Of a DNA stretch of 64,000 nt, positions 2,862 through 26,927 are shown in pieces; the first letter of the stretch is position 1; every line of letters begins with the position of its first letter. The DNA lies in NCBI GenBank assembly GCA_965263355.1, contig CBDHHL010000032.1, positions 2,368,001-2,432,000 on the forward strand, given 5' to 3'. The translations under genes were made by a program, and so were the position numbers. Under the pieces are notes generated by a model. The model had not been told where the DNA came from, made no database searches, and saw only the letters and a list, made by a program, of their open reading frames with translations. This DNA comes from Leptolyngbyaceae cyanobacterium (lineage in GTDB: Bacteria > Cyanobacteriota > Cyanobacteriia > Phormidesmidales > Phormidesmidaceae).

Positions 2862-5800
2862 ATGAGACGGTTCAATTTAGATAAGCGCTTATCTTCTCGA
2901 TTTGGGTTAGTTCTGCTAGGAGTATTGGGGTTCGACACTGTCACTCTTGAGATGGTCAATGCCCAGTCTGTAACATCGGCTCAAGATGGGACCGGAACCG
3001 TTGTCGTTCAGAATGGACAGCGCTTTGATGTTGATGAGGGGAGCTTATCGGCAGATGGGAATAAGCTGTTCCATAGCTTTCAATTGTTTCAGCCTAGCAG
3101 TGGGGAAACCGTCAATTTTTTGGCAGAGCCGTCCATCCAAAATATTTTTGCTCGCATTGTTGGTGGTGATCCAGCGGTGATTGATGGCCTGATTCAAGTT
3201 TCAGGCAGTCAGGCTAATCTTTTTTTGATGAATCCAGCGGGGGTAATCTTTGGGCCTAATGCAAGGTTAAATCTACCGGCAGCCTTTACAGCTACCACCG
3301 CCGATGGTATCGGCTTTGGGGCAGATTGGTTTAATGCCGTTGGTAGCAATGATTATTTATCCTTGGTCGGGAATCCGACTACGTTTGCATTTACCCAGAG
3401 CCAGCCTGGTGTTGTTCTTAATCAGGGGGTGTTGACCCTATTGCCCAACCAGACGCTAACGTTACTGGGGGGCACGGTGATTAATACTGGCACGCTATCG
3501 ACGTCTGGGGGACAGATTACGATCGCAACCGTCCCCGGCAAGCAGCTTGTCCGTATGAGTCAGGCAGGGCGATTACTAAATCTAGAATTTACTGAACTCA
3601 CACCTCAAAATTTGGCCACAAATAGGCTGCATTTTTCACCGATCATGTTACCAGAGCTGTTGACTAGTGGTGTGATCAATGATGCGAGTCAATTGGTTGC
3701 TAACACTGATGGTACGGTCAGTCTAAAAGGGTCAACCTTAGCAGTTCCCACTGAACCTGGTACGACCATAGCATCTGGCACCATAACTGTTGCCGACACA
3801 ACTGACACTGGTGGCAATATCACAGTACTGGGTGATCAAGTGGCTGTGCTACAGGCTTTTCTGGATGCATCTGGCACCGATGGTGGTGGTCAGATTCTGG
3901 TGGGAGGCGATTATCAAGGGCAAGGGATCACCCCTCGGGCGACGCAGACATTTATTGGTCAGGATGTTGCGATCGCAGCCGATGCCCAAACCCATGGCGA
4001 TGGAGGGCAAATCATCGTTTGGGCTGATGACACCACAGAATTTTGGGGTCAAATATCGGCAACGGGGGGGGTAAATAGTGGTGATGGCGGCTTTGTTGAA
4101 GTCTCGGGCAAGGAGACTCTCATTTTTCGAGGACTGGCTGATGTGACAACGTTAGCACCGGGAGGTGTCCTTGGTACCCTATTGCTAGACCCAGACGATA
4201 TTCGTATTGTTAACGGCACTGGGGGAAGTAATGATGGTGAGCTGACGGACGCTCAAATATTGTCTGATGATGGAGAAAAAGAGTTTACCCTATCGGAAGT
4301 TACATTAGAAAATTTACTGAGTACAGCTAACGTAGAACTACAGGCTAACAACAATATTATTATTGAAGATCTCTCTGATAACCAATTAACCTTTACTCCA
4401 GGTACTGGTTCAATTACCTTAAAGGCGGATAGTGATCAGAACGGTGTTGGTGACATCACCATGGCTGATAATAACGACACCATTTCAGCAGCCGGACGTT
4501 CTGTTGAATTTACAGGGGTAAATCTACAGTTGGGGGATATTACCACAGCGTCGGAAACAAGTGGTAATATTAGCCTGATCGCAACTCAAACCGTCAATGC
4601 TGCTAATTTAGTCACTCAGTCGGCCCAGGGCTCTGGGGGCAATGTCACAATTACTGCTGGAGATAACATTACCGTAGGGAATATTCTGACCGATGGTACT
4701 GCCAGCAGTGGCAATGTTAGTCTCACTAGTTCAGGGGCAAACAGCAATATCACAGCGGGAAATATTTTAACTGAGGCTACTAACGGTGTTAGCGGTAATG
4801 TGACCCTAACGTCTACCAACCAGGTTATTGGAAACGTAACCGGTGATTTGGTGATTAATGGAGAGGAAGTTGTGAATGAGTCTGATCCCCCGCCTGTTGA
4901 AGAATCTGAGGACTTTGAAGAGAACTTTGACGAGGGTGATGAGGACTTTGACACATTTGATGAGGACTCTGATGTACTCGAAAATGAAACGGATGAGTCT
5001 GACGATAATACCGTAGGTTTTGAGGATGATTCAGAGGAGTTTGGTGACGACGAAGAGTTTGGTGACGACGAGGAGTTTGAGGATGACGACGAGTTTGGTG
5101 ACGACGAGGAGTTTGAGGATGACGACGAGGAGTTTGAGGATGACGACGAGTTTGAGGATATCCCAGATCAGGTTGTTAGAACTGCTTTAAGCCGTAACAA
5201 TGCCAATGCTGCCCTGAAAGCGGTTGAATTACAACGTACCCAAGAGTTTGTTAACTATTTTGGACGTGATCTAGGCGCAACCGAGTTAACGGTACCCCAG
5301 ATTCAGCAGTTGCTTACCCAGGTGAGCACTCAAATTGACAATCAGTCTGTGATTGTATATGTCAAAGCACCAAATCTCTCGATTAGTTCTTCTACCACAG
5401 TTGCGTCTCCATTAGAGCTTTTAATTTTCACATCATCAGGAGAACCCGTGAATTTAACGGTTCCTGATGTCAGCCGGGAAGAGCTGTTTCAGACGATAGG
5501 ACGGTTTCGCAATACCCTAATTACGTCGGCTCGCCGGGGGTCTAAAAGTTATTTAAAGTCTTCTCAACAGCTTTATCAATGGCTGATTAAACCCATTGAA
5601 GATGAATTGGGCTCTGAATCCATAGACACGATTTTATTCTCCATGGATTCCGGATTAAGGAGTTTACCGATTGCAGCGTTGCACGATGGCCAACAGTTTG
5701 TGATCGAAAAATATAGTGTGGGTATGATGCCATCTCTGGGGTTGGTAAATACACAATATCAGCCCCTGGACGATGGGCAGGTACTTGCCATGGGGGCCAG

Positions 5801-13111: not shown

Positions 13112-13864
13112 TTAAACAGCTAGATAGCGGTGTAGCAAAGCGTCTGTTAATTGCTCAGTTGCACCTTTTTCAACAATTGCGCCTTTTTCCATGATGAAAA
13201 ACCTTTGAGCAAGTTTACGGGCAAATTCAATTTTCTGCTCTACAACGATAATTGTGATGCCCTTCTCCTGATTAATCCGCTTCAGGGTTTCTTCAATTTC
13301 TTGAACAATAGAAGGCTGAATCCCTTCCGTCGGCTCATCTAGAAGCATAATTTTAGGGTTACACATCACCCCCCGAGCAATGGCAAGCTGCTGTTGCTGA
13401 CCACCACTCAGTAATCCTCCCTGACGGTTTAAATGCTCCTGAAGCATGGGGAAGAAATCAAAAATTTCACTGGGAATGCGATCGCCCTTTTTCCCACTCG
13501 CACTAAATCCCATCTTTAGATTATCCAACACAGATAAATACGGAATGATTTCACGCCCTTGGGGAATATAGGCAATTCCTTTTCTAGCTCGTTTAAACGT
13601 CGGGATTTTAGTGATATCGGTATCATCAAAAACAATGCTTCCCTTTGATAAGGCGTTTAATCCAATGATGCTCCGTAAAAGTGTGGTTTTACCGACTCCA
13701 TTACGACCCAATAGACAAACAATTTCCCCCTGCTTAACGGACATATTCACATCAAACAAGACAGGAGTTTGTCCATATCCAGCCGTAACATTAACCATAT
13801 CGAGTAATGGTTTGGCAACAGTCATTACGTCACTTACTTTAGGCAGCGGCTTTAATTGTTTCAT
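13112..13864 (-). CDS. Urea/short-chain amide ABC transporter ATP-binding subunit (UrtE-like)
   Basis: GRNGVGKT, LSGGQQQQLAIAR, LLDEPTEGIQPSIV. Confidence 0.9.
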   Translation of the reverse strand: MKQLKPLPKVSDVMTVAKPLLDMVNVTAGYGQTPVLFDVNMSVKQGEIVCLLGRNGVGKTTLLRSIIGLNALSKGSIVFDDTDITKIPTFKRARKGIAYIPQGREIIPYLSVLDNLKMGFSASGKKGDRIPSEIFDFFPMLQEHLNRQGGLLSGGQQQQLAIARGVMCNPKIMLLDEPTEGIQPSIVQEIEETLKRINQEKGITIIVVEQKIEFARKLAQRFFIMEKGAIVEKGATEQLTDALLHRYLAV

Positions 13865-14639
13865 GACCTAGATAGACCTCTATCACTTTAGGATTACTTT
13901 GGACTTCTTCTACCGAACCTTCTGCCAAAACCTTGCCTTGGTGCAGTACAACAATTCGTTCAGCAATTTGCTTGACAAATTCCATATCATGTTCGATAAC
14001 TACCACTGAATGAGATTTAGAGATACTTTTAATAATCTCACCAGTCATGTAGGTTTCATCGGCTGTCATACCAGCAGTCGGTTCATCCAACAAAACAATG
14101 GACGGGTCCTGAGCCAACACCATGGCAATTTCAACCCATTGTTTTTGGCCATGGGATAAAGACGAAACCTGGTCAAAAGCCTGATCTACCAAACCTGTTC
14201 TGGATAAAACATCAAAGATTTTACCCTTTTTGGCCTTGGTTAATTTTGCAGTGATTGAGGCCCAGATACCATGGGTGCCTTTGAGGGCCAACAGAATATT
14301 GTCAAAAACGGTTAGTTCGTTGTAGACATTGGGGTTCTGAAATTTGCGTCCAATCCCCATACGGGCAATAACATGGGGGCTATTATTGGTAATATCTTTG
14401 CCATGATAGTAAATATGCCCCGAAAAAACAGGGGATTTACTAACAATGGCATCCAGCAATGTACTTTTCCCTGCGCCATTGGGGCCAATGATGGTAACAA
14501 TTTCACCATCATAAACATCCAGACTAACCCCACTTAGAGCTTTAAAGCCTGAAAAAACAACATTTAAATCTTTGACAGATAAGACTGCTTCCATCTTGGT
14601 ATCCATCTTTGCATCTTTGACAGATAAAACTGCTTCCAT
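13839..14639 (-). CDS. Urea/short-chain amide ABC transporter ATP-binding subunit (UrtD-like)
   Basis: GPNGAGKS, GRKFQNP, LSHGQKQWVEI, LLDEPTAGM. Confidence 0.9.
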   Translation of the reverse strand: MEAVLSVKDAKMDTKMEAVLSVKDLNVVFSGFKALSGVSLDVYDGEIVTIIGPNGAGKSTLLDAIVSKSPVFSGHIYYHGKDITNNSPHVIARMGIGRKFQNPNVYNELTVFDNILLALKGTHGIWASITAKLTKAKKGKIFDVLSRTGLVDQAFDQVSSLSHGQKQWVEIAMVLAQDPSIVLLDEPTAGMTADETYMTGEIIKSISKSHSVVVIEHDMEFVKQIAERIVVLHQGKVLAEGSVEEVQSNPKVIEVYLGHETIKAAA

Positions 14640-14659
14640 GGGAAAATCCTCTCAGTGAG

Positions 14660-15766
14660 CTAATTCTTTACCACATCCGGTGTTTTTAACAGTTTTGGCT
14701 TAGATAGGTTTGCCAAACTAAACTGCTTAGGCAGCAAGCTCATCAATCCATTTGGAATAAATAGCACAACAACCAGCAACAAAATACCTATCACCAACTG
14801 CCAATCTTGAGTCACTTTTTCAGCATAGTTCTGGACCTGTCCCAAAATAATGGCTGCTAGCAGAGGTCCAACCAGAGTGCCTCTACCACCAATCGCTACC
14901 CAAATAACTACCTGAGTACCAAAGGCAACAGCTAGATATACCGGGGAAATAAACTGGTTTAAGGGTACAAATAACCCACCAGCTACGCCTGCCAGGGCAG
15001 CTGATAGGGTCCAGATAAAGATTTTAAACTGAGCCACATCGTAACCAAGAAACGCAATGCGTTTTTCATTCTCATTGATGGACCGCAGAATCAGCCCAAG
15101 GTTAGATTGGGTCAACCACCAGCTCAAAGCCAAAACAAAGACCGTATAGGTCAAAATCATAAAATACAGCCCAACAGGTGGAATCTCAGCTCCAAAAAAG
15201 CTTAACTTGCTAACGTCGGTAATGCCGTTTGTGCCCCCCGTGTAAGCCTGCTGACTGACGAAAAAGGTAGTCAGTGCCGAAGAAATTGCCAGGGTGATAA
15301 TGGTGATATAAACACCGCTAACCTTAGAGCGAAAAATGAAATATCCTATGATATAGGCAAATAATGCAGGCACTGCAACCGTTGCAAACAGGGCAATTGG
15401 AAAATATTTAAGCGGGGCGATAAACCAGGGAAGCGCCTCTAAACCATTCCAAACCATAAAGTCAGGCAGTTCACCTCCATAGGTATTGGAAGCCGCAGAA
15501 AGATTTAGCTTCAGGTAATAGGCTGAAGCATATCCACCTAAGGTAAAGAAAACTCCATGGGCAAAACTTAAAATACCTGTAAATCCCCATACCAGGTCTA
15601 GAGAGATACCTAGCGCACCAAATAACAACAGCTTAGACATTAACGAAAGCTGAAAATCCCCAAACACAAAGGGCAAGATGATAAATATCAGCAGTGCAAT
15701 GCCACTGATGGCAGCTAACTTTGTTGGAAAAGATGACTGTTTATATCCCATGACTGCGTTTGCCAT
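14660..15766 (-). CDS. Urea/amide ABC transporter permease (UrtC-like)
   Basis: LDLVWGFTGILSFAHG, LPDFMVWNG, VIWVAIGGRGTL. Confidence 0.9.
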   Translation of the reverse strand: MANAVMGYKQSSFPTKLAAISGIALLIFIILPFVFGDFQLSLMSKLLLFGALGISLDLVWGFTGILSFAHGVFFTLGGYASAYYLKLNLSAASNTYGGELPDFMVWNGLEALPWFIAPLKYFPIALFATVAVPALFAYIIGYFIFRSKVSGVYITIITLAISSALTTFFVSQQAYTGGTNGITDVSKLSFFGAEIPPVGLYFMILTYTVFVLALSWWLTQSNLGLILRSINENEKRIAFLGYDVAQFKIFIWTLSAALAGVAGGLFVPLNQFISPVYLAVAFGTQVVIWVAIGGRGTLVGPLLAAIILGQVQNYAEKVTQDWQLVIGILLLVVVLFIPNGLMSLLPKQFSLANLSKPKLLKTPDVVKN

Positions 15767-15820
15767 GACCTACCTCCTAATAACTTGTTCAACTAATGTT
15801 TGACTTCTTCTAAAGGGAGG

Positions 15821-16828
15821 CTATGTGCGTTTTTGAATCGAAAACAAGCCTTCAGGTCGATATCGAATTAATACAATCACAGCTGCCAGCACAATTACCC
15901 TGGCGAGGGGATCGTTGAGTATGAAGGCAATTACAGCATTGGCCTCGCCAATCAAAAGAGAACCTGCCAAAACCCCAATTAGCTTGTCGACACCACCTGT
16001 AACCACTACCATCCAAGCATCAACCAGATAATCTTGTCCCATGGGAGGAGCCACCGTTTTGAGGGCAGAAATTACAGCCCCTGCTACACCCGCTAACCCA
16101 CAGCCATAGGCAAAGGTACCCATGTCCACCAGTTTAGTATTTACCCCAAGACATTTAGCCATGTCACGATTCTGGGTCACTGCTCTAATCTGTCGCCCCC
16201 AGGAGGTTTTATAAAACAAATACATGGTTAACCCCAGCAGGACTAATGCCACCGCGATGATAAACATACGGTAGTAAGAAATAGAAATCAGAGCACCACC
16301 AGCATCGTCAGATAACAGTGGCAGGTTGCCAGATAGGTAAGGAGGGGCTTTTACATACTTAAGCTGGGCTGTGAAGATTAACTTGACCACACCCTGCAAA
16401 ACAATACTTAGTCCCCAAGTTGCCAATAACGTTTCTAGAGGATTGCCATAAAGTCGACGAATAATCGTCAATTCCACCACAGCTCCAATAATGGCCGTGA
16501 TCAAAAAGGCAAATGGAATAGTCATGAGCAAATCCATCCCAAAGGCATCTTGCAACACAAAGGTTACATAGGCCCCTAACATAATGAATTCGCCGTGGGC
16601 CAGATTGATAATACGCATGACCCCAAAGGTAATTGCTAGGCCCAAGCCTGTTAGCAGCAAAATACCGACAATACCAATGCCATTGAGGGCTTGGTTAAGT
16701 AGGGTGACAATATCGAATCCGCCAGTTGCAGCTTCAGCTTCTTCCTGGGCTAGCAAAAAGGTAGATAAAAAAACTGAAGATGGATCAAAGGCTAGCATGG
16801 GAAAAATCGTAGGGTAAAAAGAAACCAA
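15821..16828 (-). CDS. Urea/amide ABC transporter permease (UrtB-like)
   Basis: GLAITFGVMRIINLAHGEFIMLGAY, PLETLLATWG; start may be ATG at 16798. Confidence 0.9.
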   Translation of the reverse strand: MVSFYPTIFPMLAFDPSSVFLSTFLLAQEEAEAATGGFDIVTLLNQALNGIGIVGILLLTGLGLAITFGVMRIINLAHGEFIMLGAYVTFVLQDAFGMDLLMTIPFAFLITAIIGAVVELTIIRRLYGNPLETLLATWGLSIVLQGVVKLIFTAQLKYVKAPPYLSGNLPLLSDDAGGALISISYYRMFIIAVALVLLGLTMYLFYKTSWGRQIRAVTQNRDMAKCLGVNTKLVDMGTFAYGCGLAGVAGAVISALKTVAPPMGQDYLVDAWMVVVTGGVDKLIGVLAGSLLIGEANAVIAFILNDPLARVIVLAAVIVLIRYRPEGLFSIQKRT

Positions 16829-16864
16829 TAAAATTGGAAATTCCGATGGGCGTTGAAAAAATGT

Positions 16865-16960
16865 GCTAGCTGATAAATCTTGCTTATATCCATAAAGAAA
16901 TTCTCACGGGAAGCACCGAGATGAGAACCCTTAAAGCATAATCAATCAATATCAGCTAGC
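16865..16960 (-). other. Intercistronic stem-loop between binding-protein and permease genes
   Basis: GCTAGCTGATA/TATCAGCTAGC outer stem with inner TTCTCA/TGAGAA. Confidence 0.55.
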
Positions 16961-16986
16961 TGTTTAATTGTGTTGTCCGCCAAAAA

Positions 16987-18345
16987 TCACAAGAAAACTG
17001 GTTCTAGATCCTTACCGGTCTCTTTGGTAGGATCACTCCGATCATCAGGGATTGGATGTTCACACACACGACCTTTATAGAGAGTCTGACTCCAGGCAAT
17101 AGGTTTGACGGCAGCATCTGTAGCAAACACAATCTCAGCCTGACCATCCTCCTTCCATTTACCAATACGGGAATAGAGGTAGGTATGGTAGTTGTCTGGA
17201 TCAATTTTGACCCGACCCTGGGGGGCATTAAATTCCTGGCCTCGAGTTGCTTCTCGAATATTGCCTGGAGTTAGCTCGCCACCATCTTCCAGAATCTTCT
17301 TCATTGCTTGAGCCATAAAGAAGGTTTGAAGATAGGCAGCTTCCATTACCCCATTGGTGACACGCCCTTTACCAAACATAGCCTTAAATTGCTCTACAAA
17401 TGCTTTGTTTTCAGGGGTATCAACCGTCTGGAAGTAGTTAAAACTGGTGTAGTGACCGGTAGAGTATTCAGGTCCCATGGCCTGAATTTCCTCTTCAGTG
17501 GTTGGATAGGCCATGATTGGAATATCGTCAGATGTAATGCCCGCATCCTTAAACTGGCGGTAAAAGGCTGGAATACTGTCACCCACCAGGTTACTTAAGA
17601 CAAAGTCAGGCTTCGCTGCTTTGATTTTATTGATGATGGTAATAAATTCTGTGGTACCCAGAGCTGCATACTCGTCCCCGACAACAGTTCCGCCAGCTTT
17701 CTCTAGCTCAGCCTTAGCAATTCGATTACTTTCCTTGGGATAGATGTAGTCGGAGCCAATGAAGAAACCTTTGGGACCAAAGTTATCGTAGCAGTAAGGG
17801 ATGGAGTCTGTAATCTGCTGGTTCGGAGCTGCGCCAGTGTAAAAGACGTTTGAGCTGCATTCATTCCCTTCGTAATAAACAGGGTAATAAAGAATGGCAT
17901 CTTTTTCCTCGAAGACAGGAAGCACCGATTTACGACTAGCTGAGGTATAGCATCCAAGGACACAAACCACTTTATCTTCATCAATCAGTCGCTTTGACAT
18001 CTGGTTGTAAAGATCCCAGTTAGAGTCAGGATTAACAACCACCTTTTCTATCTTTCTACCAGCAATACCTTCGCCATTAGCTTCCCATGGCCCGGTACCG
18101 GTGTTGATCTGCTCAATTGCCAAAAATGTTGCATCCTGTAGGGACTTTTCAACAATGGCAATAGTTCCTGTAGTGGAGTACATCACACCCACTTTAATGG
18201 GATTTTCGCCCAGGTCGGCCGATTCAGACGGCCCACTACCTCCACCAGTACATGCAGCAACAATGCTGCTACCCACAGCCAGAGAACCGTACTGAATAAA
18301 TTTTCGACGATTCAGACTTGTATCAGAAACGTGGGGCTTTGCCAT
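16987..18345 (-). CDS. Amide/urea ABC transporter substrate-binding lipoprotein (UrtA/FmdD/AmiC family)
   Basis: Tat-like NRRKFI plus lipobox VAAC; GCYTSASRKSVLPVFE, YPVYYEGNECS, YTGAAPNQQ, GSDYIYP. Confidence 0.9.
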   Translation of the reverse strand: MAKPHVSDTSLNRRKFIQYGSLAVGSSIVAACTGGGSGPSESADLGENPIKVGVMYSTTGTIAIVEKSLQDATFLAIEQINTGTGPWEANGEGIAGRKIEKVVVNPDSNWDLYNQMSKRLIDEDKVVCVLGCYTSASRKSVLPVFEEKDAILYYPVYYEGNECSSNVFYTGAAPNQQITDSIPYCYDNFGPKGFFIGSDYIYPKESNRIAKAELEKAGGTVVGDEYAALGTTEFITIINKIKAAKPDFVLSNLVGDSIPAFYRQFKDAGITSDDIPIMAYPTTEEEIQAMGPEYSTGHYTSFNYFQTVDTPENKAFVEQFKAMFGKGRVTNGVMEAAYLQTFFMAQAMKKILEDGGELTPGNIREATRGQEFNAPQGRVKIDPDNYHTYLYSRIGKWKEDGQAEIVFATDAAVKPIAWSQTLYKGRVCEHPIPDDRSDPTKETGKDLEPVFL

Positions 18346-18650
18346 AACTCTTATCTACCTAAATCACAAGTTCAAACAAGGAAAACAGAAGCATCGATCT
18401 GCGCTCGTCCATTTAATTCACTGGAAGACTTCCTTAAAAATCAAAGAAGGAAACAGAACATTAGATTTAGATTATCCAGAGGACGCGATCTTGATCGACG
18501 CGGAACAACAGGCACAGGAATAATCTCAGGGAGCCTACACTCTTCCTACTGCAAACACCGTAAGAAATATTAAATAAAATCAATAACTTCCTACAAGAAA
18601 TCACAGAAAAATAGGGATTCTACCTTGACCTGTATCTTCTTATCTTTAAG

Positions 18651-18691
18651 AGCATAGAGCAGTCTCGTATGACTTTTGTTGCTTTGGATAC
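18651..18691 (-). promoter_or_regulatory. Putative NtcA-type promoter for the transporter operon
   Basis: Minus strand GTA-tccaaagc-AAC (5/6 match), 21-nt spacer, -10 TATGCT. Confidence 0.5.
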
Positions 18692-18896
18692 GAAAAGGTC
18701 TCCTTAGAAAGAAAATGTCATGATTCCTTGTCATTCAACACCTTTTCCAAGTCTTCTCTATCAAGCATAGATTTAACGGCGGCTCCAAAATAATACTATC
18801 AAACCTAATAGCACTAGTTTTTTGGGGCCTTTTTTCAAAGAGGAAGCAAAGAGTATTATTGCGTTTACCAATGCCGCTATTGCTTGTCACAATAGT

Positions 18897-18937
18897 GTAT
18901 CTGCTGTTGCATTTGAATTGAAGGATATGCTTAGGAT
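18897..18937 (+). promoter_or_regulatory. Putative NtcA-type promoter for amiE
   Basis: GTA-tctgctgt-TGC (5/6 match), 21-nt spacer, -10 TAGGAT. Confidence 0.5.
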
Positions 18938-19119
18938 AGCTAAGCTGTATTTTGAGACGACACGATGTTCGAAGCCAGAATTGTGGCTGATTTTGGAAAT
19001 AGCACTGGCAGGTTTTGCAATGCACGTCGCTGAATCTATCAGAATGTATTGAGACTACTAGGCTGTTGTTAGATAGATGCTTTTGGCTAAGACAACTCGA
19101 AAAGTGGGAGTTAGTTTTT

Positions 19120-20211
19120 ATGGCAGTTCATGGTGATATCTCCTCTAGTAATGACTCAGTAGGGGTAGCTGTAGTTAATTACAAGATGCCGCGATTACAT
19201 ACTCGCGAAGAGGTACTGGCAAACTGTAAGACTATTGCCGATATGATCGACGGCATGAAAGTGGGGTTGCCAGGGATGGATCTTGTTATCTTCCCTGAGT
19301 ATTCAACCCATGGCATCATGTACGACTCTGAAGAAATGATGGAAACAGCTTCCAGCATTCCAGGGTCTGAGACTGATATTTTTGCTGAGGCTTGTATTCG
19401 TAATAAGGTTTGGGGGGTGTTTTCATTGACGGGTGAACGTCATGAAGAACATCCCAAGAAGGTGCCTTACAACACTCTGATCTTGATGAACGATCAAGGT
19501 GAGATTGTGCAAAAGTATCGCAAAATCATGCCTTGGACTCCCATTGAGGGGTGGTATCCAGGCAACTGCACCTATGTAGCCGAAGGTCCTAAAGGTCTGA
19601 AGATCAGTCTAATTATCTGTGACGATGGTAATTATCCTGAGATTTGGCGTGACTGCGTTATGAAGGGGGCCGAATTGGTAGTCCGTTGTCAGGGATATAT
19701 GTACCCTGCTAAGGAACAGCAAATTATTGTTTCTAAGGCCATGGCCTGGATGAATAATACTTATGTTGCTGTGGCTAATGCCTCTGGTTTTGATGGTGTT
19801 TATAGCTACTTTGGACATTCTGCAATTATTGGGTTTGATGGCCGCACTCTAGGGGAATGTGGAGAGGAAGAAAACGGTATTCAATATGCAGCGTTATCTA
19901 AGTTTGCCATCCGTGACTTCCGACAGCATTCTCAGTCCCAGAATCACCTGTTTAAGCTCTTACACCGTGGCTACACTGGCATGATTAATTCGGGTGACGG
20001 TGAAGAGGGTATGATGGAATGTCCTTACGAGTTCTATCGTGAATGGATTCTAGACCCTGAGAAAACCAAGGAAAAAGTTGAGGCATTAACGCGTTCTACG
20101 GTTGGGACTGAAGAATGTCCTATTGAAGGGATTCCTAATAAGAACTCTAAAGTACCTGTGGTACCTACCAAGAAATCGGAACCAGTTACGGTCACCCAAC
20201 CTGTCTCCTAG
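19120..20211 (+). CDS. amiE: Aliphatic amidase (nitrilase superfamily)
   Basis: [55 protein letters not shown] at 19120. Confidence 0.95.
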
Positions 20212-20225
20212 AGATCTGGATATAT

Positions 20226-20265
20226 AGCAAACGTCCTGAGTCTTTGGGACGTTTGCTTGGTTTTT
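20226..20265 (+). terminator. Intrinsic terminator after amiE
   Basis: AGCAAACGTCC/GGACGTTTGCT stem followed by a T-rich tail. Confidence 0.7.
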
Positions 20266-20704
20266 GGCATAACTTAAACCCTGACATTTTCTCAAAGCAA
20301 GTCTAGAGGTCTTGGCGCGAAATATAGTTATTATATTGTTGCCTATTCATAACAGAATTAAGTAACACTTTTATGGACTTTAGGATATATTGTTGTCATT
20401 AACGATTCACACAGCCTATGCCTAGCATAGGCTTTTTATTTGCTTATACTTGTTTTGTGTCATTGTCTCTATGCAACAAATCAAAGTTGTCATTATCAGT
20501 CTGTCAGCTATTGCCATATTTTATGCCTAATCAGTTTCACAAGGAGAAATGGTTTTGCAACGTCATCGATCAGGTTCTCTTTATATGAAATACTAAAATA
20601 CGAGAATGATAATCATTCTCATTTTGTGCCAGCATATACATACTCATCCCTTCTGCTTTCCTATAATACTTTTCATAAATCACCATTCTTGGGAGAAATT
20701 CGAT

Positions 20705-21748
20705 ATGGGTAGTACAGGAAGTGTTAGTTCATGGTCGGAGTCTCTTCTGGTTGCCATGATCCAGTATCCGGTTCCAGTTATCACTGGTCCAGAAGATATT
20801 CAGACTCAGGTCAAACAGATTTGTAAAGCTGTTGACAACACTAAAGCAGGTTATCCCGGTCTGGATCTGATTGTGATGCCGGAGTACTCTACTCAAGGGC
20901 TCAATACGAAAATCTGGACATATGACGAAATGCTTTTGACAGTAGATAGTCCAGAGATTGATCAGTTCCGGGCAGCTTGTGAGCGTAACAAAATCTGGGG
21001 AGTCTTTTCTCTTATGGAGAAAAACGATGTACCTGGACTGCCACCCTTTAACACTGCGATTATCATCAATGATCAAGGAGAAATTGCCCTTCACTATCGC
21101 AAATTGCAGCCTTGGGTGCCGATTGAACCTTGGTATCCAGGAAATTATGGGATGCCCGTATGTGATGGACCTAAGGGTTCTAAACTAGCGGTTTGTATTT
21201 GTCATGATGGGATGTTCCCTGAATTAGCGCGAGAAGCGGCCTATAAAGGGTGTAATGTTTATATTCGCATCTCTGGATACTCCACTCAGGTCAACGATCA
21301 GTGGATCTTGACAAATCAAACAAATGCTTGGCAGAACTTGATGTACACCATCTCCGTCAACTTGGCGGGCTATGACGGTGTGTTCTACTACTTTGGTGAA
21401 GGCACTGTGTGCAACTACGATGGCAATGTGATTCAGCAGGGCCATCGTAATCCTTGGGAAATTGTGACAGCTGAATTGTTCCCTAAAATGGTGGATGAAG
21501 CCCGTAAAAACTGGGCTCTTGAAAACAATGTCTTCAATGTTGGTTGCCGAGGCTATGTAGGTAAACCTGGTGGAGAGCGTGAAAATTACCTGACTTGGGT
21601 GAAGGACTTGGCTGAAGGAAAGTACGAGTTGCCCTGGGATAAGGACATCAAGATTAGAGACGGTTGGGAATACTATCCTGATGGAATCAAGCTAGGGCCT
21701 CTGCCAACAGAAGAATCTGCAAAGACCTTGGTGGGCGCTAGTTCCTAA
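20705..21748 (+). CDS. amiF: Formamidase (nitrilase superfamily)
   Basis: MGSTGS start, [38 protein letters not shown] at 20705. Confidence 0.93.
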
Positions 21749-21777: not shown

Positions 21778-21808
21778 TCCCCCACAGGCTCAGTTTGTGG
21801 GGGAATTT
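21778..21808 (+). terminator. Hairpin/terminator after amiF
   Basis: TCCCCCACA/TGTGGGGGA stem. Confidence 0.6.
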
Positions 21809-22102
21809 AATTAAGTTCCCCTATTGTATTAACAAATACACTGAGCGTACCTATAACACCTATCAAGAAATCAGAACTAGTTACAATCATTCAGCCTGTT
21901 GCTTAGAAAGTCTAGTGTAAGTCATCAAAAATTTGATGGCTTTTCAACGTATTTCTTTGCTAAGACCTATACTTATTCTGGACCTGCTAACTTTTGTCGG
22001 CTCAGTTTTTTGTTTTCTGCCCTTAAGCTATATCCACATCAAGGTCTATCGCTGAAGTCTCAGTTGTCTTCTCACCATATATGGCGTCTAAATTAGTTTA
22101 TT

Positions 22103-22111
22103 TGCTAGATT
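22103..22111 (+). promoter_or_regulatory. Extended -10 promoter element
   Basis: TG-c-TAGATT placed so transcription would start at ~22117-22118, the first bases of the closing stem below. Confidence 0.5.
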
Positions 22112-22116
22112 AGAGC

Positions 22117-22204
22117 AGCCACTTGTGGGACTTCAGTGTGACTTCCGACTTCCATCTGTAAAATGGCACTAGCTAGTTGCGCTTCCTTTCCCCAAGTGGC
22201 TTTT
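22117..22204 (+). ncRNA. Candidate structured small RNA (Y-RNA-like topology) upstream of the vWA gene
   Basis: 5' AGCCACTTG-(T bulge)-GGGA pairs with 3' TCCC-CAAGTGGCT, then TTT; inner AGTG/CACT and CCAT-CTGTAAA-ATGG hairpin. Confidence 0.55.
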
Positions 22205-22228
22205 GGGTAAATAGGTATAGTTACAATT

Positions 22229-23683
22229 GTGACAGTTGATTGGGCAAAGCGACTTGAACAGGTTGCTCAAGAAGATTTAGTAATGTTTATCAATGCTTGT
22301 CTGACTTGCACTGGACAGCGAGAATTTTATGACGATGCCTATGGTCAGAAAGTTTCCCTTGATTTTCTCCATGACTATATCTTAGGGAACTATCGTCTTT
22401 TATATTGTAGAACCTTGGCGGCAGGCATTAACCATTTCAACCAGATGCAGATCGTTTTGAAGCTATTGGCAACGGGAAAGCAAACCCAGGCTCATCACCG
22501 TGCCGAAGAGAATCAATTAATTACTGCCACGCTGCACAATTTACCCTCCCAGCGTGCATGGAAGTTGCTGCAACAAATTCGAGAACGCGGAATTAACAAT
22601 CGCCGAGCACGAGCAATTGCCAAACAATATTTCACTACCCGAGGGGATCTTCTAGCATTTCATGCTGTAAAATATCGTTCCAAGCTACGGGCAATTGCTA
22701 CCCATAACCATCTTAACCTTAATCAGCTCAGTGCTGACGTAGGTCATGAACTAGGGGATTTTTTATTTCGCCATTGGCCAAAACAGTTCCAAACCCCCTT
22801 ATTTGAAAAGTTTCGTAAAGGGTTTTACAGTGCTAGTAACATTTATGAATTGCCTTTTACCGTTGCTGAAGGATTAGCCGTTAAACACAATATTCCACGC
22901 GGACGCTTTCTTCAGACTATTGAAGGTCAAATGACCGCAGGTGAGAAACTGCGCCTTCAAAATAGTGCCAGACAGGCTAAGACTCAACTCGATCTAGATC
23001 CGCAAAAACTCTCTCTCACGAAGTTAGCACTCTATGCTCTAGCCCTCGATATCCAGACCCGTAAGCAACATCAGGATGAGTTAGAAAGACTCTTGCAAGC
23101 CAGTGCTCGTAAAGCCTTACGGAAAGCCCCACTGCGATTAGGAAGAGTAGCAGCCGTGCTAGATCGCAGTTATTCTAGCTCCGGCTCGTCTGAAAAACGA
23201 CGACGACCGTTGGGCATTGCATTGGCTGTGCATTATCTTTTGCAAGCAGCGTCACGGAACTATCGGCCATTTTGGACAATAGCAGCTCCTGAGCCCCTGT
23301 TAGTCACACCCTATGGACAAACCAATTTGGTAGATCCTATGTTGGCAGCCCTTGACTGGCAACCAGAGTTGATTTTAATTATTTCAGATGGTTGGGAAAA
23401 CGATCCGCCGGGGGGCGTAGCTGAACTTTTGCGGATCTATCGGACTAAATTAGATCCACAGCGACAAATTTCCATTGTCCACTGTAATCCTGTTTTTAAC
23501 GCCGATGATTTTACCCTTAAACATTTGAGTTCCCTGGTACCAACGGTTGGTTTACGTGAAGCAGAAGAGTTGCCAGTGGTGTTAGAGTTTGCCCGATTTG
23601 CAGAAGGTACTGCTTCCTTGAGTGAGCTGGAAACATATTTAGCAGGTCGAGTCCAGGCTCTTTTAGCGTCGGCCCATTTGTAG
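22229..23683 (+). CDS. Helical N-terminal domain + C-terminal vWA protein (Ro60/TROVE-like layout)
   Basis: MIDAS motif VLDRSYSS...GQTNL...IISDGWEN; basic helical N-terminal ~300 aa. Confidence 0.7.
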   Translation: MTVDWAKRLEQVAQEDLVMFINACLTCTGQREFYDDAYGQKVSLDFLHDYILGNYRLLYCRTLAAGINHFNQMQIVLKLLATGKQTQAHHRAEENQLITATLHNLPSQRAWKLLQQIRERGINNRRARAIAKQYFTTRGDLLAFHAVKYRSKLRAIATHNHLNLNQLSADVGHELGDFLFRHWPKQFQTPLFEKFRKGFYSASNIYELPFTVAEGLAVKHNIPRGRFLQTIEGQMTAGEKLRLQNSARQAKTQLDLDPQKLSLTKLALYALALDIQTRKQHQDELERLLQASARKALRKAPLRLGRVAAVLDRSYSSSGSSEKRRRPLGIALAVHYLLQAASRNYRPFWTIAAPEPLLVTPYGQTNLVDPMLAALDWQPELILIISDGWENDPPGGVAELLRIYRTKLDPQRQISIVHCNPVFNADDFTLKHLSSLVPTVGLREAEELPVVLEFARFAEGTASLSELETYLAGRVQALLASAHL

Positions 23684-23696
23684 GAGTATAGTTCTA

Positions 23697-24857
23697 ATGG
23701 CTCGGAAAGCTCCACTTCTGGAAGAAATCTCCCTTAAAGGTCTAGAAATTGCCCCGTCTCAGATTTGGGGAAACATTCGTCTGGTTCCCCTATTGCGCCA
23801 ACGGGTGCGGTCAGATTTACGTTTGTTCAAACGTGACTACCAGAGCGACATGACAATGGTCTCCATTGATAAAGATACTCGCTATTTCTCCTGTATTCCC
23901 CACGGCTTGGTCTTGCATTGGAGTGAGGATGGCCAGCCGGTAGTCGCCACAGGAGGACAGCTACTCACTGAAGGCAAGGTAAATAATATAGCCTCCTTTA
24001 AGGTACAAATGTTACAGCGCATGGTGAAACGCGAAACCAAACAATCACTCAGGCTTTTACCGCTCCATTTAGCCATGGAGGGATTTCTGAGTCTATTTTT
24101 TGGCGGGCCAACGGTGGCATGGCAGAGTTATTCAAAACAAGCCTTATCCAGCGGACTGTCGCCTCGGGTTGAATGGTCTATAGGTGGACGAGCCATCGCC
24201 CAATTTGACAATGCCTTACGACTGTTTGAAATCCATGATCGGCAGGTTGGCGTTTTATTGTTTGTGTCTGAAATGTTAGTTTCTGCGTTTGTAGTCCCCA
24301 CACCAGAGGATTACCGAGCCCTTCATCTTAGTTTGCTGGAAGACTTTTATGGTGAAACCTTTCTTTATTACGGGCTTTATGGTGGCACCAGTGTATTAAA
24401 TGTTGAGATTGATGCGGCACAGGTGCATACGCTTAATGACCTCAGGGTAGCACTTACCCAGGTGCGGGCAGATTGGGCTGCATTTCAGGGATTTATGGCC
24501 AGTAATCTGCTCAATGTGCCACTGCAATCGAAACGAATTTATCGAGCCGGGCCGTTTAGCTTACAGCGCTTTATGACAGCTCTGGATCCCAAGCAGCAGA
24601 ACTACATTGGCGAAGCAATTCTGGATAATGATAACCAGCTTCAATACCTCAAGATTTATGGCCTTTCAGCAGCTCAAACAAAACGAGCTTATTTACTTAA
24701 ACAAATGGCTATCCATGATTGGAATCTGGAACGTACGGCTCAATCACAGAATGACACCCTAGCTCAGTTTATTTATCGACTTGAAAAAGTAGGCTTTGGT
24801 TACTTAGTCAACAATCAGTTGCGGGAACAAGCCGCCAAAGAACGTCGTCTGACTTGA
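23697..24857 (+). CDS. ARPP-2-like protein with possible C-terminal Fis-type HTH
   Basis: GLEIAPSQIWGNIRLVPLLR N-terminus recalls proteins annotated ARPP-2 (from memory); 13 nt after the vWA gene with AGGAG RBS. Confidence 0.6.
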   Translation: MARKAPLLEEISLKGLEIAPSQIWGNIRLVPLLRQRVRSDLRLFKRDYQSDMTMVSIDKDTRYFSCIPHGLVLHWSEDGQPVVATGGQLLTEGKVNNIASFKVQMLQRMVKRETKQSLRLLPLHLAMEGFLSLFFGGPTVAWQSYSKQALSSGLSPRVEWSIGGRAIAQFDNALRLFEIHDRQVGVLLFVSEMLVSAFVVPTPEDYRALHLSLLEDFYGETFLYYGLYGGTSVLNVEIDAAQVHTLNDLRVALTQVRADWAAFQGFMASNLLNVPLQSKRIYRAGPFSLQRFMTALDPKQQNYIGEAILDNDNQLQYLKIYGLSAAQTKRAYLLKQMAIHDWNLERTAQSQNDTLAQFIYRLEKVGFGYLVNNQLREQAAKERRLT

Positions 24858-26155: not shown

Positions 26156-26746
26156 TTACCATCCACCAACATAGAGAGATTTGACGGTTCCTGGATTATA
26201 TCTTTGTCGAATCTCTCCAAATTTGACTTCATCGATAACGTCTATGTTGCCACCATCGTTCACGGTGTAAACCCCGGTTTTATAACATTCAGCAATTGCC
26301 AACATCATGTTAGTCAAGCTTACAAACGCCAGACTGACAGAATAGTCATCGCTTATGTGGAAAATAGGTGCCGTGGCTATTGGTTCTTCAGTGCCTTGGA
26401 CGGCAAAGTATTCACCCTCAAAGTCGAACAATGGAAATAAATATGACGGTTCTTCATCCTGTTGTCGTATTTTCAGTAAGGCATCATCATTGATATTGTC
26501 TGAAAACTCACAGGCGCTGTTTAGGTCGAGAAACGATAAATATCCAAACACTGAACTGTATGTCTTATCGCCATTACGCCATTGATATAGTTCATAGACT
26601 TCTTGAGATACTTGAAAAGGCAGTCTATTTAGCTTTTCTGCGATGACGTCGGCAGGTAAACCGGGTTGAAAACCAGCGGCAGCTGTTGGTTGGTGTTCAC
26701 CTAACCAATTGAGAATACGGTCAAGAGCATTGATTAGTTCTGTCAT
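26156..26746 (-). CDS. SMI1/KNR4 (SUKH) family protein
   Basis: [33 protein letters not shown] at 26746. Confidence 0.8.
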
Positions 26747-26927
26747 GCAACGTGTATAGTGCAACAACTCGGATAAAATAAGGAGAGTAATGGATACAAA
26801 GTGAACTACTATCTAGGGTATCACTAACAAACATAATATCCAGCGGTGTGTTTGAAATGCTTGGCCGGGGCTGAATCGATGACGAAAAATGTTTTAAGAT
26901 TTGTTGTACCGACTGTGATTTGTAAGT

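Follow-up and report, generated by a model that had tools for sequence, protein, structure and literature searches.

A covarying RNA family upstream of a predicted Ro60-like protein and its ARPP-2 neighbour in a cyanobacterial cassette

A 64,000-nucleotide (nt) stretch of DNA from a Leptolyngbyaceae cyanobacterium (assembly GCA_965263355.1, contig CBDHHL010000032.1, positions 2,368,001 to 2,432,000; analysed as a whole and called the window) carries a cassette in which a structured RNA is followed by two open reading frames (ORFs), ORF1 and ORF2, all on the + strand and in an order, RNA-ORF1-ORF2, that is fixed across homologous loci. The RNA belongs to a real and strongly covarying family that is absent from Rfam, ORF1 is predicted from its modelled structure to be a divergent Ro60, and ORF2 is an ARPP-2 protein. 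The cassette is read here as encoding a divergent Ro60 particle, in which its own RNA would be bound to the ring, ARPP-2 would be tethered and the pore would take damaged RNA ends, and the probability of this reading is put at roughly 0.55. The features of the cassette, in window coordinates, are as follows.

22103..22111, + strand: extended -10 promoter element TGcTAGATT (TGCTAGATT), from the sequence and the same spacing in homologues
22117..22204, + strand: structured RNA element of ~85 nt, from its fold, covariation in two separate alignments and column conservation
22135-22142/22176-22183, + strand: P2 helix of the RNA, from the fold and the alignments
22143-22147, + strand: conserved UUCCG of the RNA, from column conservation
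22152-22166, + strand: P3 hairpin of the RNA, from the fold and the alignments
22229-23683, + strand: ORF1, 484 amino acids (aa), GTG start, divergent Ro60/TROVE-like by predicted structure
23697-24857, + strand: ORF2, 386 aa, ARPP-2 with a likely C-terminal helix-turn-helix (HTH), from the PF22549 profile

Inspection by eye of the sequence ahead of ORF1 in 77 genome loci showed a conserved RNA element, which was located in 68 of them, a linkage that rests mostly on copies of the training set; seven of the nine loci missing it have no more than 369 nt of upstream sequence. With 61 copies as input, RNAalifold predicted three nested helices, in which 15 of 22 pairs had double-sided change, and a covariance model, trained mostly on cyanobacteria, was built from this 61-copy alignment. 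The model was applied to a held-out set of 80 metagenome loci (some of them near-duplicates) collected via distant, mostly GC-rich ORF1 proteins, giving 71 full matches plus one cut copy, located just upstream of ORF1 on the coding strand; the misses were seven loci with ORF1 at the contig edge and one (L174) that is unexplained. The same structure was recovered in a sequence-only MAFFT alignment of the window copy with 66 untrained copies. In these 67 sequences, 94.7% of cells pair, with slid controls at 40-47%, and 16 of 21 pairs are compensatory (for the end stem P1, 96.6% paired and 7 of 11 pairs compensatory). Double-sided changes numbered 157, compared with 36 in shuffles, a level reached by 0/500 shuffles; as the shuffles ignore kinship, this proportion is not a p-value. 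A conserved, covarying structure upstream of homologous genes, which had been set beforehand as a test of the Ro-like proposal, was found in both alignments.

The distribution of the RNA was examined in 150 Cyanobacteriota genomes, with only 28 candidates scored per genome. All 15 matches of the covariance model (in 13 genomes) lay directly upstream of ORF1, and with filters off the RNA was detected in four further ORF1-carrying genomes, giving 17 of 19 carriers compared with 0 of the 131 genomes without ORF1. The remaining two carriers were G271, with a partial ORF1 and only a 10-bit RNA fragment, and G313, a weak ORF1 match. Comparison with Rfam, called for in an earlier note on the window with Y RNA and YrlA in mind, gave no match for the window copy or for the family, even at permissive E-values, and ARAGORN found no transfer RNA (tRNA).

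The window copy shows every part described for it in the earlier note, namely ~88 nt folding back on themselves, a 13-bp stem pairing the ends, one bulged U and a following UUU. Positions 22117-22205 fold at -33.9 kcal/mol (z -4.61; 0/200 shuffles equally stable), and P1 joins 22117-22125 and 22127-22130 to 22189-22201, leaving U22126 bulged within a conserved G-Y-GGRACU. Family features were assessed in 85 distinct copies (89 minus three antisense or spurious rows and one duplicate). The invariant positions are G11, G14, C17, U34, C37, G38 and C122, which make up two handles: the end stem carries G-Y-GGRACU and the interior U(U/A)CCG. The bulged base of P1 is C or U in 83 of the 85 copies. 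The UUU of the window copy did not carry over to the family, in which it follows the stem in only 12/85 members and the tail is pyrimidine-rich (73% C/U), not U-rich; with a U-run or UUU in only 11-12/85 copies, a conserved U-tail or a terminator role for P1 was rejected. Positions Y12-A16, the GGG of the end stem, are complementary to the inner U34-G38 (UUCCG) in 79-85 of the 85 copies per pair. A pseudoknot or switch between the two fits the sequences, shows no double-sided change in the 85 copies and is unsupported, being kept as a lead only.

A longer form of the RNA appears on plasmid NZ_CP058558 of Alkaliphilus sp. B6464, which carries an ORF1 homologue of 24% identity followed by a gene intermediate between ARPP-1 and ARPP-2, with a TerD gene upstream. 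Ahead of this ORF1 homologue lies a ~180-nt structured element (L083:5294-5473), not detected by the RNA covariance model, in which an apparently equivalent P1/P2/UUCCG frame, judged by eye and fold, surrounds a ~110-nt insert (z -4.3). This suggests a wider clade with longer RNAs. At a further locus (L091:1356-1450, - strand), an RNA with a degenerate 3' strand leads straight into an ARPP-2 gene that is truncated at its N-terminus, and 7 kb of sequence contain no ORF1, an arrangement that looks like a deletion remnant.

The extended -10 element that had been read ahead of the RNA is present at 22103-22111, and its spacing is kept in homologous loci: a TAnnnT begins 19-23 nt before the invariant G of the RNA in 79 of 115 distinct homologous upstream sequences, compared with 6.7% (maximum 15.8%) in control windows further upstream. 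With the hexamer at this fixed spacing, transcription likely begins at the first base of the RNA, which the -10 would place at ~22117-22118. A generic sigma-70 scan of the window called no site at 22103-22111. ORF1 starts 24 nt after the UUU tail and ORF2 follows after a gap of 13 nt, in agreement with the tight two-gene operon noted before. The nearest named homologue, 86% identical, comes from a Leptolyngbyaceae genome.

The ORF1 protein of the window had no match in Pfam (including TROVE PF05731 and vWA_Ro60 PF25045), NCBIfam or the PDB sequences, and the vWA_Ro60 profile matched only 3 of 100 ORF1 relatives (best E 0.036). The AlphaFold2 (AF2) model, obtained from a 97-row alignment with a predicted local distance difference test (pLDDT) value of 96.7 and a predicted template modelling score (pTM) of 0.94, has a helical ring at residues ~5-299, a von Willebrand factor A (vWA) domain at ~304-441 and C-terminal closing helices. 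Foldseek gave 13 matches to the model at E ≤0.001, the best 12 of the 13 being all Ro60/Rsr/TROVE (top E 1.2e-7; TMq up to 0.64). This was further supported by VIA alignment to 1yvp_A, an RNA-bound Ro60 (Z 18.6, root-mean-square deviation [rmsd] 4.6, 421 residues), with Z values of 16.9 and 14.0 for 9l5y_B and 2nvo_A (408-421 residues over the three) and of ≤12.6 for vWA-only rows. The Ro-like (TROVE toroid) fold anticipated for ORF1 is borne out in the AF2 model, and ORF1 is predicted to be a divergent Ro60 that is recognized by structure and missed by profiles.

The basic helical N-terminal region and the intact MIDAS (metal ion-dependent adhesion site) of the vWA domain, both recognized earlier from the translation, were confirmed. 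Residues 1-300 contain 43 K+R vs 27 D+E, and the MIDAS (D312-S314-S316/T365/D387) is intact, D312, S316 and D387 being conserved in 97/97 sequences, S314 in 95/97 and T/S365 in 96/97. Two conserved basic motifs lie in the ring, NNRRxR and AVKYR..HxH, the latter with K148 in 95/97, Y149 in 97/97, H159 in 95/97 and H161 in 70/97 sequences. By eye, AVKYR..H159xH161 resembles AVTKY(170-171)..RLSH187 of Ro60 and AVKY..RKAH of Rsr, and the Ro60 change H187S abolishes Y-RNA binding (PMC11277228). The ORF1 family comprises at least 1508 proteins (678 representatives at 50% identity); UniRef labels some relatives 'TROVE domain-containing', Atlas lists TROVE clusters at 0.93, and no relative was found in viral contigs with the two patterns used. 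Cultured carriers include Acaryochloris marina MBIC11017, in which the cassette is complete (L019); ORF1 homologues are present in Nostoc PCC 7120 and in Trichormus variabilis ATCC 29413.

The ARPP-2 label given to ORF2 in the earlier note proved correct, the protein matching PF22549 over the full model length (residues 11-285; E 2.3e-105; 352 bits vs a cut-off of 27). A likely Fis/NtrC-type HTH is found at the C-terminus (residues ~322-367, window ~24660-24797). The HTH_8 profile matched 11/88 ARPP-2 members (best E 0.0033), and VIA ranked Fis/NtrC HTHs highest for ORF2 (Z 5.0 and rmsd 2.1 over 46 residues), although the score is weak and the model has a pLDDT of 62. This model is poor, with residues 44-126 below 50. 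Foldseek returned no match to it at E ≤0.001, VIA matched nothing beyond the small HTH, and Atlas had no usable match outside PF22549. Invariant residues in 56 diverse sequences include R119, E178, Q183, D205, Y206, H210, E306, Y317 and Q327. ARPP-2 shares a superfamily with ARPP-1 (PF20208/DUF6569), which is described in ARG-centred systems and in HIRAN-, WYL- or deacetylase-linked pairs and is reported to occur beside the WYL domain and HIRAN, a domain that binds 3' ends (PMC9503650). The ARPP-1 profile matched weakly in 82/88 ARPP-2 proteins, and hhalign gave a probability of 94% between ARPP-2 and the ARPP-1 protein that follows a distant ORF1 homologue. In contrast to ARPP-1, which that source describes with an absolutely conserved cysteine (and glutamine), ARPP-2 has no such cysteine and adds the likely HTH.

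The pairing of the two proteins, which had been put forward as a Ro-like protein with a dedicated partner, was found nearly throughout the family, with ARPP-2 present within 72/77 genome loci and directly downstream of ORF1 in 71/80 metagenome loci, the other nine having ≤197 nt of room. One protein (P0150) fuses ORF1 and ARPP-2, which also speaks for a partnership. A predicted ORF1-ARPP-2 complex has weak support, with a score of 0.56 compared with 0.00 for the best control; in calibration the mark was reached by 116/157 solved complexes and 2/215 mismatched pairs, and scores of ≤0.60 comprised only 18/157 solved complexes and both mismatches. The co-folding runs share at least 77% of contacts, with a partner pLDDT of at least 63. 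A conserved third gene was rejected, since ORF1 and ORF2 were the only clusters to extend across distant groups (31 ORFs scanned).

Known Ro systems include Xenopus laevis Ro60 (1yvp/2i91), Deinococcus radiodurans Rsr (2nvo) with Yrn1 and polynucleotide phosphorylase (PNPase), termed 'RYPER', Salmonella rsr-yrlBA-rtcBA, and Thermus phage phiLo Ro60 (9l5y) with Yrl1/2. The cassette shares with Ro60/Rsr and their Y RNAs a predicted helical ring that is completed by a vWA domain carrying DxSxS..T..D, an adjoining same-strand RNA of ~85 nt whose ends pair and whose 5' strand bears a bulged pyrimidine, and a conserved RNA core of the CCG(A)A type; a KY..H helix motif in the protein also resembles theirs by eye. 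It differs in that ORF1 is only 10-13% identical to Ro60/Rsr, has a shorter ring and has no TROVE/vWA_Ro60 Pfam match, in that the RNA has two invariant elements where a Y RNA has one, and in that the fixed partner is ARPP-2, not PNPase/RtcB. With YrlA/YrlB the RNA has in common its position on the same strand next to a Ro-type gene and a plausible two-module layout of protein-binding stem and effector module (PMC4201824; 10.1101/312249). Unlike YrlA, it shows the GUUCRA T-loop in only 1/85 copies, has no T/D arms and forms a three-helix rod, not a cloverleaf. The Ro site published for Y RNAs is GGUCCGA / GNCGAA(N)G near the 5' end (PMC4201824). The Y-RNA likeness proposed in the earlier note holds for architecture (placement and bulged end stem) and fails for sequence (GNCGAA in 0/85 copies) and for the U-tail. 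Having neither GNCGAA nor a tRNA-like domain, the RNA should not be filed as a Y RNA or YrlA.

In the parts searched, PMC9503650 and its supplement name no TROVE or RNA association for ARPP, and the main text of 2026 preprints on new bacterial RNAs contains no TROVE, ARPP, vWA or Rsr, although their supplements could list the RNA. The RNA and the trio are undescribed in the literature searched, where ARPP itself is treated only in PMC9503650, and the gene pair may already be noted in sources outside it.

In the divergent Ro60 particle, a single promoter would make one transcript of the RNA, ORF1 and ORF2, from which the RNA would be cut out and trimmed back to the base of P1, as no terminator is conserved. 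The basic outer face of the ring would be the site of RNA binding, with contact made by the AVKYR..HxH helix, the apparent motif counterpart of Ro60 K170-Y171..H187. The part of the RNA contacted would be the bulged G-Y-GG stem, which has the position used in Y RNAs, or else the inner UUCCG, which has the more Y-RNA-like sequence. The other invariant RNA element, together with direct protein contact, would hold ARPP-2 on the ring. Binding of the RNA to ORF1 is probable, and the presence of ARPP-2 in the same particle is favoured with less assurance; that the job of the particle is RNA-end surveillance is put forward tentatively. Under stress, 3' ends from damaged or misfolded RNAs would enter the pore and be offered to ARPP-2, the small RNA serving as tether and gate, a logic that comes from work on Ro60 and Y RNA (PMC4201824; 10.1101/312249; PMC12135203) and that we infer by analogy may apply to the ORF1 particle.

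Expression data were available for the A. marina locus L019, where 14 RNA-seq runs cover the stretch, all as assembled contigs, which show neither ends nor levels; eight of these were compared. In run X9 a contig begins at 4912 of L019 and in run X12 at 4943, both positions falling within the element (4896-4990), and each contig continues into ORF1. Run X2 consists of a single 30-kb contig, upstream DNA is covered as well in X7, and stretches without coverage carry no information. This gives a weak hint that the element belongs to the operon transcript.

Several observations weigh against the Ro60 particle. The RNA-seq contigs that start in the element come from two studies and run on into ORF1, and no discrete transcript can be read from such contigs. 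Loci L025 and L037 carry 5 kb of upstream sequence yet no RNA match, and L001, L013, L015 and L061 have no ARPP-2 in the locus. The KY..H match of ORF1 to Ro60 was made only by eye and is four residues shorter, and hhalign of ORF1 with canonical Rsr, at a probability of 2% and over the vWA domain only, did not recover it. As for the absence of GNCGAA from the RNA, CGAA occurs in 43/85 copies and the window copy reads CCGAC. The ORF1-ARPP-2 fusion protein (P0150) comes from a single record in which the last helix of ORF1 is missing, and may reflect a frameshift. In the recurrent neighbour clusters that were scanned, conserved genes for RNA repair or for a nuclease were absent. Finally, ARPP-2 has no invariant cysteine, no cysteine column exceeding 30/56, and with ARPP-1 described as having one, an enzymatic role of ARPP-2 is conjectural.

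As the main alternative, the RNA could be a cis-acting leader, with ORF1 and/or ARPP-2 binding the mRNA and autoregulating, possibly through the GGG switching between the 3' CCC of P1 and UUCCG. The RNA is indeed always 5' of ORF1, on the same strand and right behind the promoter element, the RNA-seq contigs continue from it into ORF1, and a terminator-like U-run follows it in only 11/85 copies. The spacer to the start codon, counted for 153 of 154 copies (among them tandem ones and a number of repeated places), has a median of 30 nt and is ≤60 nt in 117 of the 153, and the Y12-A16 complementarity to U34-G38 described above is what a switch would use. However, the same spacer ranges from 4 to 1247 nt and exceeds 150 nt in 24/153 copies, and no expression platform (terminator or Shine-Dalgarno pairing) is evident in the spacers by eye. 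The alternative helix is without double-sided change, whereas P1 has it (G-C to A-U, seven copies), and paired ends closing the whole molecule are typical of stable RNAs; YrlA of M. smegmatis also lies 5' of its Ro gene (PMC4201824). Tandem RNA copies were found in five genomes, three in L045 and two each in L049, L050, G287 and G299. Taken with the long spacers and the plasmid homologue with its insert, they favour an independent RNA over a switch, and a leader role is considered unlikely. Non-identical copies in tandem before one ORF1 were located at L045:4573-4958, L049:1819-2094, L050:4653-4927, L201:3086-3299 and L202:1366-1578.

A second alternative is an anti-phage or stress effector, in which the RNA restrains ring-ARPP-2 and its loss in infection frees ARPP-2, in the manner of an RNA antitoxin. 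This would accord with the patchy spread of the cassette (17-19/150 Cyanobacteriota genomes; 6/251 genomes in the phylum of L067, a Nannocystaceae genome), with its copies on five plasmid records, with a helicase, a methylase-like ORF, a ParE-like ORF and a type IV secretion system (T4SS) coupling protein near it in some Nostoc loci, with the tandem RNA copies, and with the description of ARPP-1 in conflict systems (PMC9503650). Against this, PADLOC 2.0 gave 0 defence families for four cassette proteins at E 0.01, the proteins show good conservation between distant groups (38-60%) and are not fast-evolving, most neighbourhoods are ordinary and unrelated, and some loci lack the RNA or an adjacent ARPP-2, so that such a role appears improbable. 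A signalling module, in which the ring senses damaged RNA ends and the HTH of ARPP-2 regulates transcription, for example of canonical rsr or RNA-repair genes elsewhere, would draw on the HTH resemblance and on a separate canonical TROVE gene in 13/17 cassette-bearing vs 17/133 other Cyanobacteriota genomes (odds ratio 22), and is more improbable still, given weak HTH scores, a would-be recognition helix that is variable and not basic in the 56 sequences, and a TROVE co-occurrence for which genome size and kinship are confounders and which is weak in the second phylum, that of L067 (2/6 vs 18/245, p 0.07).

With regard to the divergent Ro60 particle, a more far-reaching version is possible, if doubtful. 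The cassette might represent a separate and ancient Ro ribonucleoprotein branch in which a two-handle rod RNA couples a Ro-like ring to ARPP-2, with the GGG perhaps alternating between the terminal stem and a UUCCG pseudoknot. ARPP-2 would then be a Ro effector that is neither nuclease nor ligase, either a new RNA-end-modifying enzyme or an RNA-damage sensor, gated by the RNA switch and acting alongside canonical Rsr. Known bacterial Ro particles differ in the effector tethered by the Y RNA, which has been identified for only a minority of them (10.1101/312249). Here the likely effector, ARPP-2, is encoded in the operon and the RNA is a new covarying family, so that the question of what Ro rings hand RNA to becomes testable with three small parts. 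The cassette also offers a first handle on the ARPP-2 family, and indicates that Ro-like proteins and their RNAs reach beyond Pfam TROVE and Rfam detection.

Some features were observed around the cassette in other genomes. In A. marina, a canonical TROVE gene (L082, G003:C1:2209996-2210724) lies ~21 kb from the cassette. In Nostoc loci, XisI, XisH and a ~250-aa ORF are inserted between ORF1 and ARPP-2 (L021:1802-2137, L025:6484-6894 and L033:6569-7324), and in 17 loci, mostly from filamentous cyanobacteria, an ORF of 120-150 aa without a Pfam match lies just upstream of the RNA (e.g. L055:4336-4698).

In the window itself, the region upstream of the cassette (13839-21748) contains branched-chain/urea-type ABC transporter genes, judged from their sequence only, which are divergent from two carbon-nitrogen hydrolase genes; 20606-21748 is a PF00795 gene by Pfam profile match. 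A strong terminator-like hairpin (21778-21804; -20.5 kcal/mol) closes the upstream amidase gene, and a weaker hairpin with a U-run (21978-22011) lies ~100 nt ahead of the promoter. Beyond the cassette, an SMI1/KNR4-like ORF is found at 26156-26767, with a profile match below the cut-off, followed up to 28746 by short ORFs that give the impression of glycosidase, oxidoreductase and transposase fragments.

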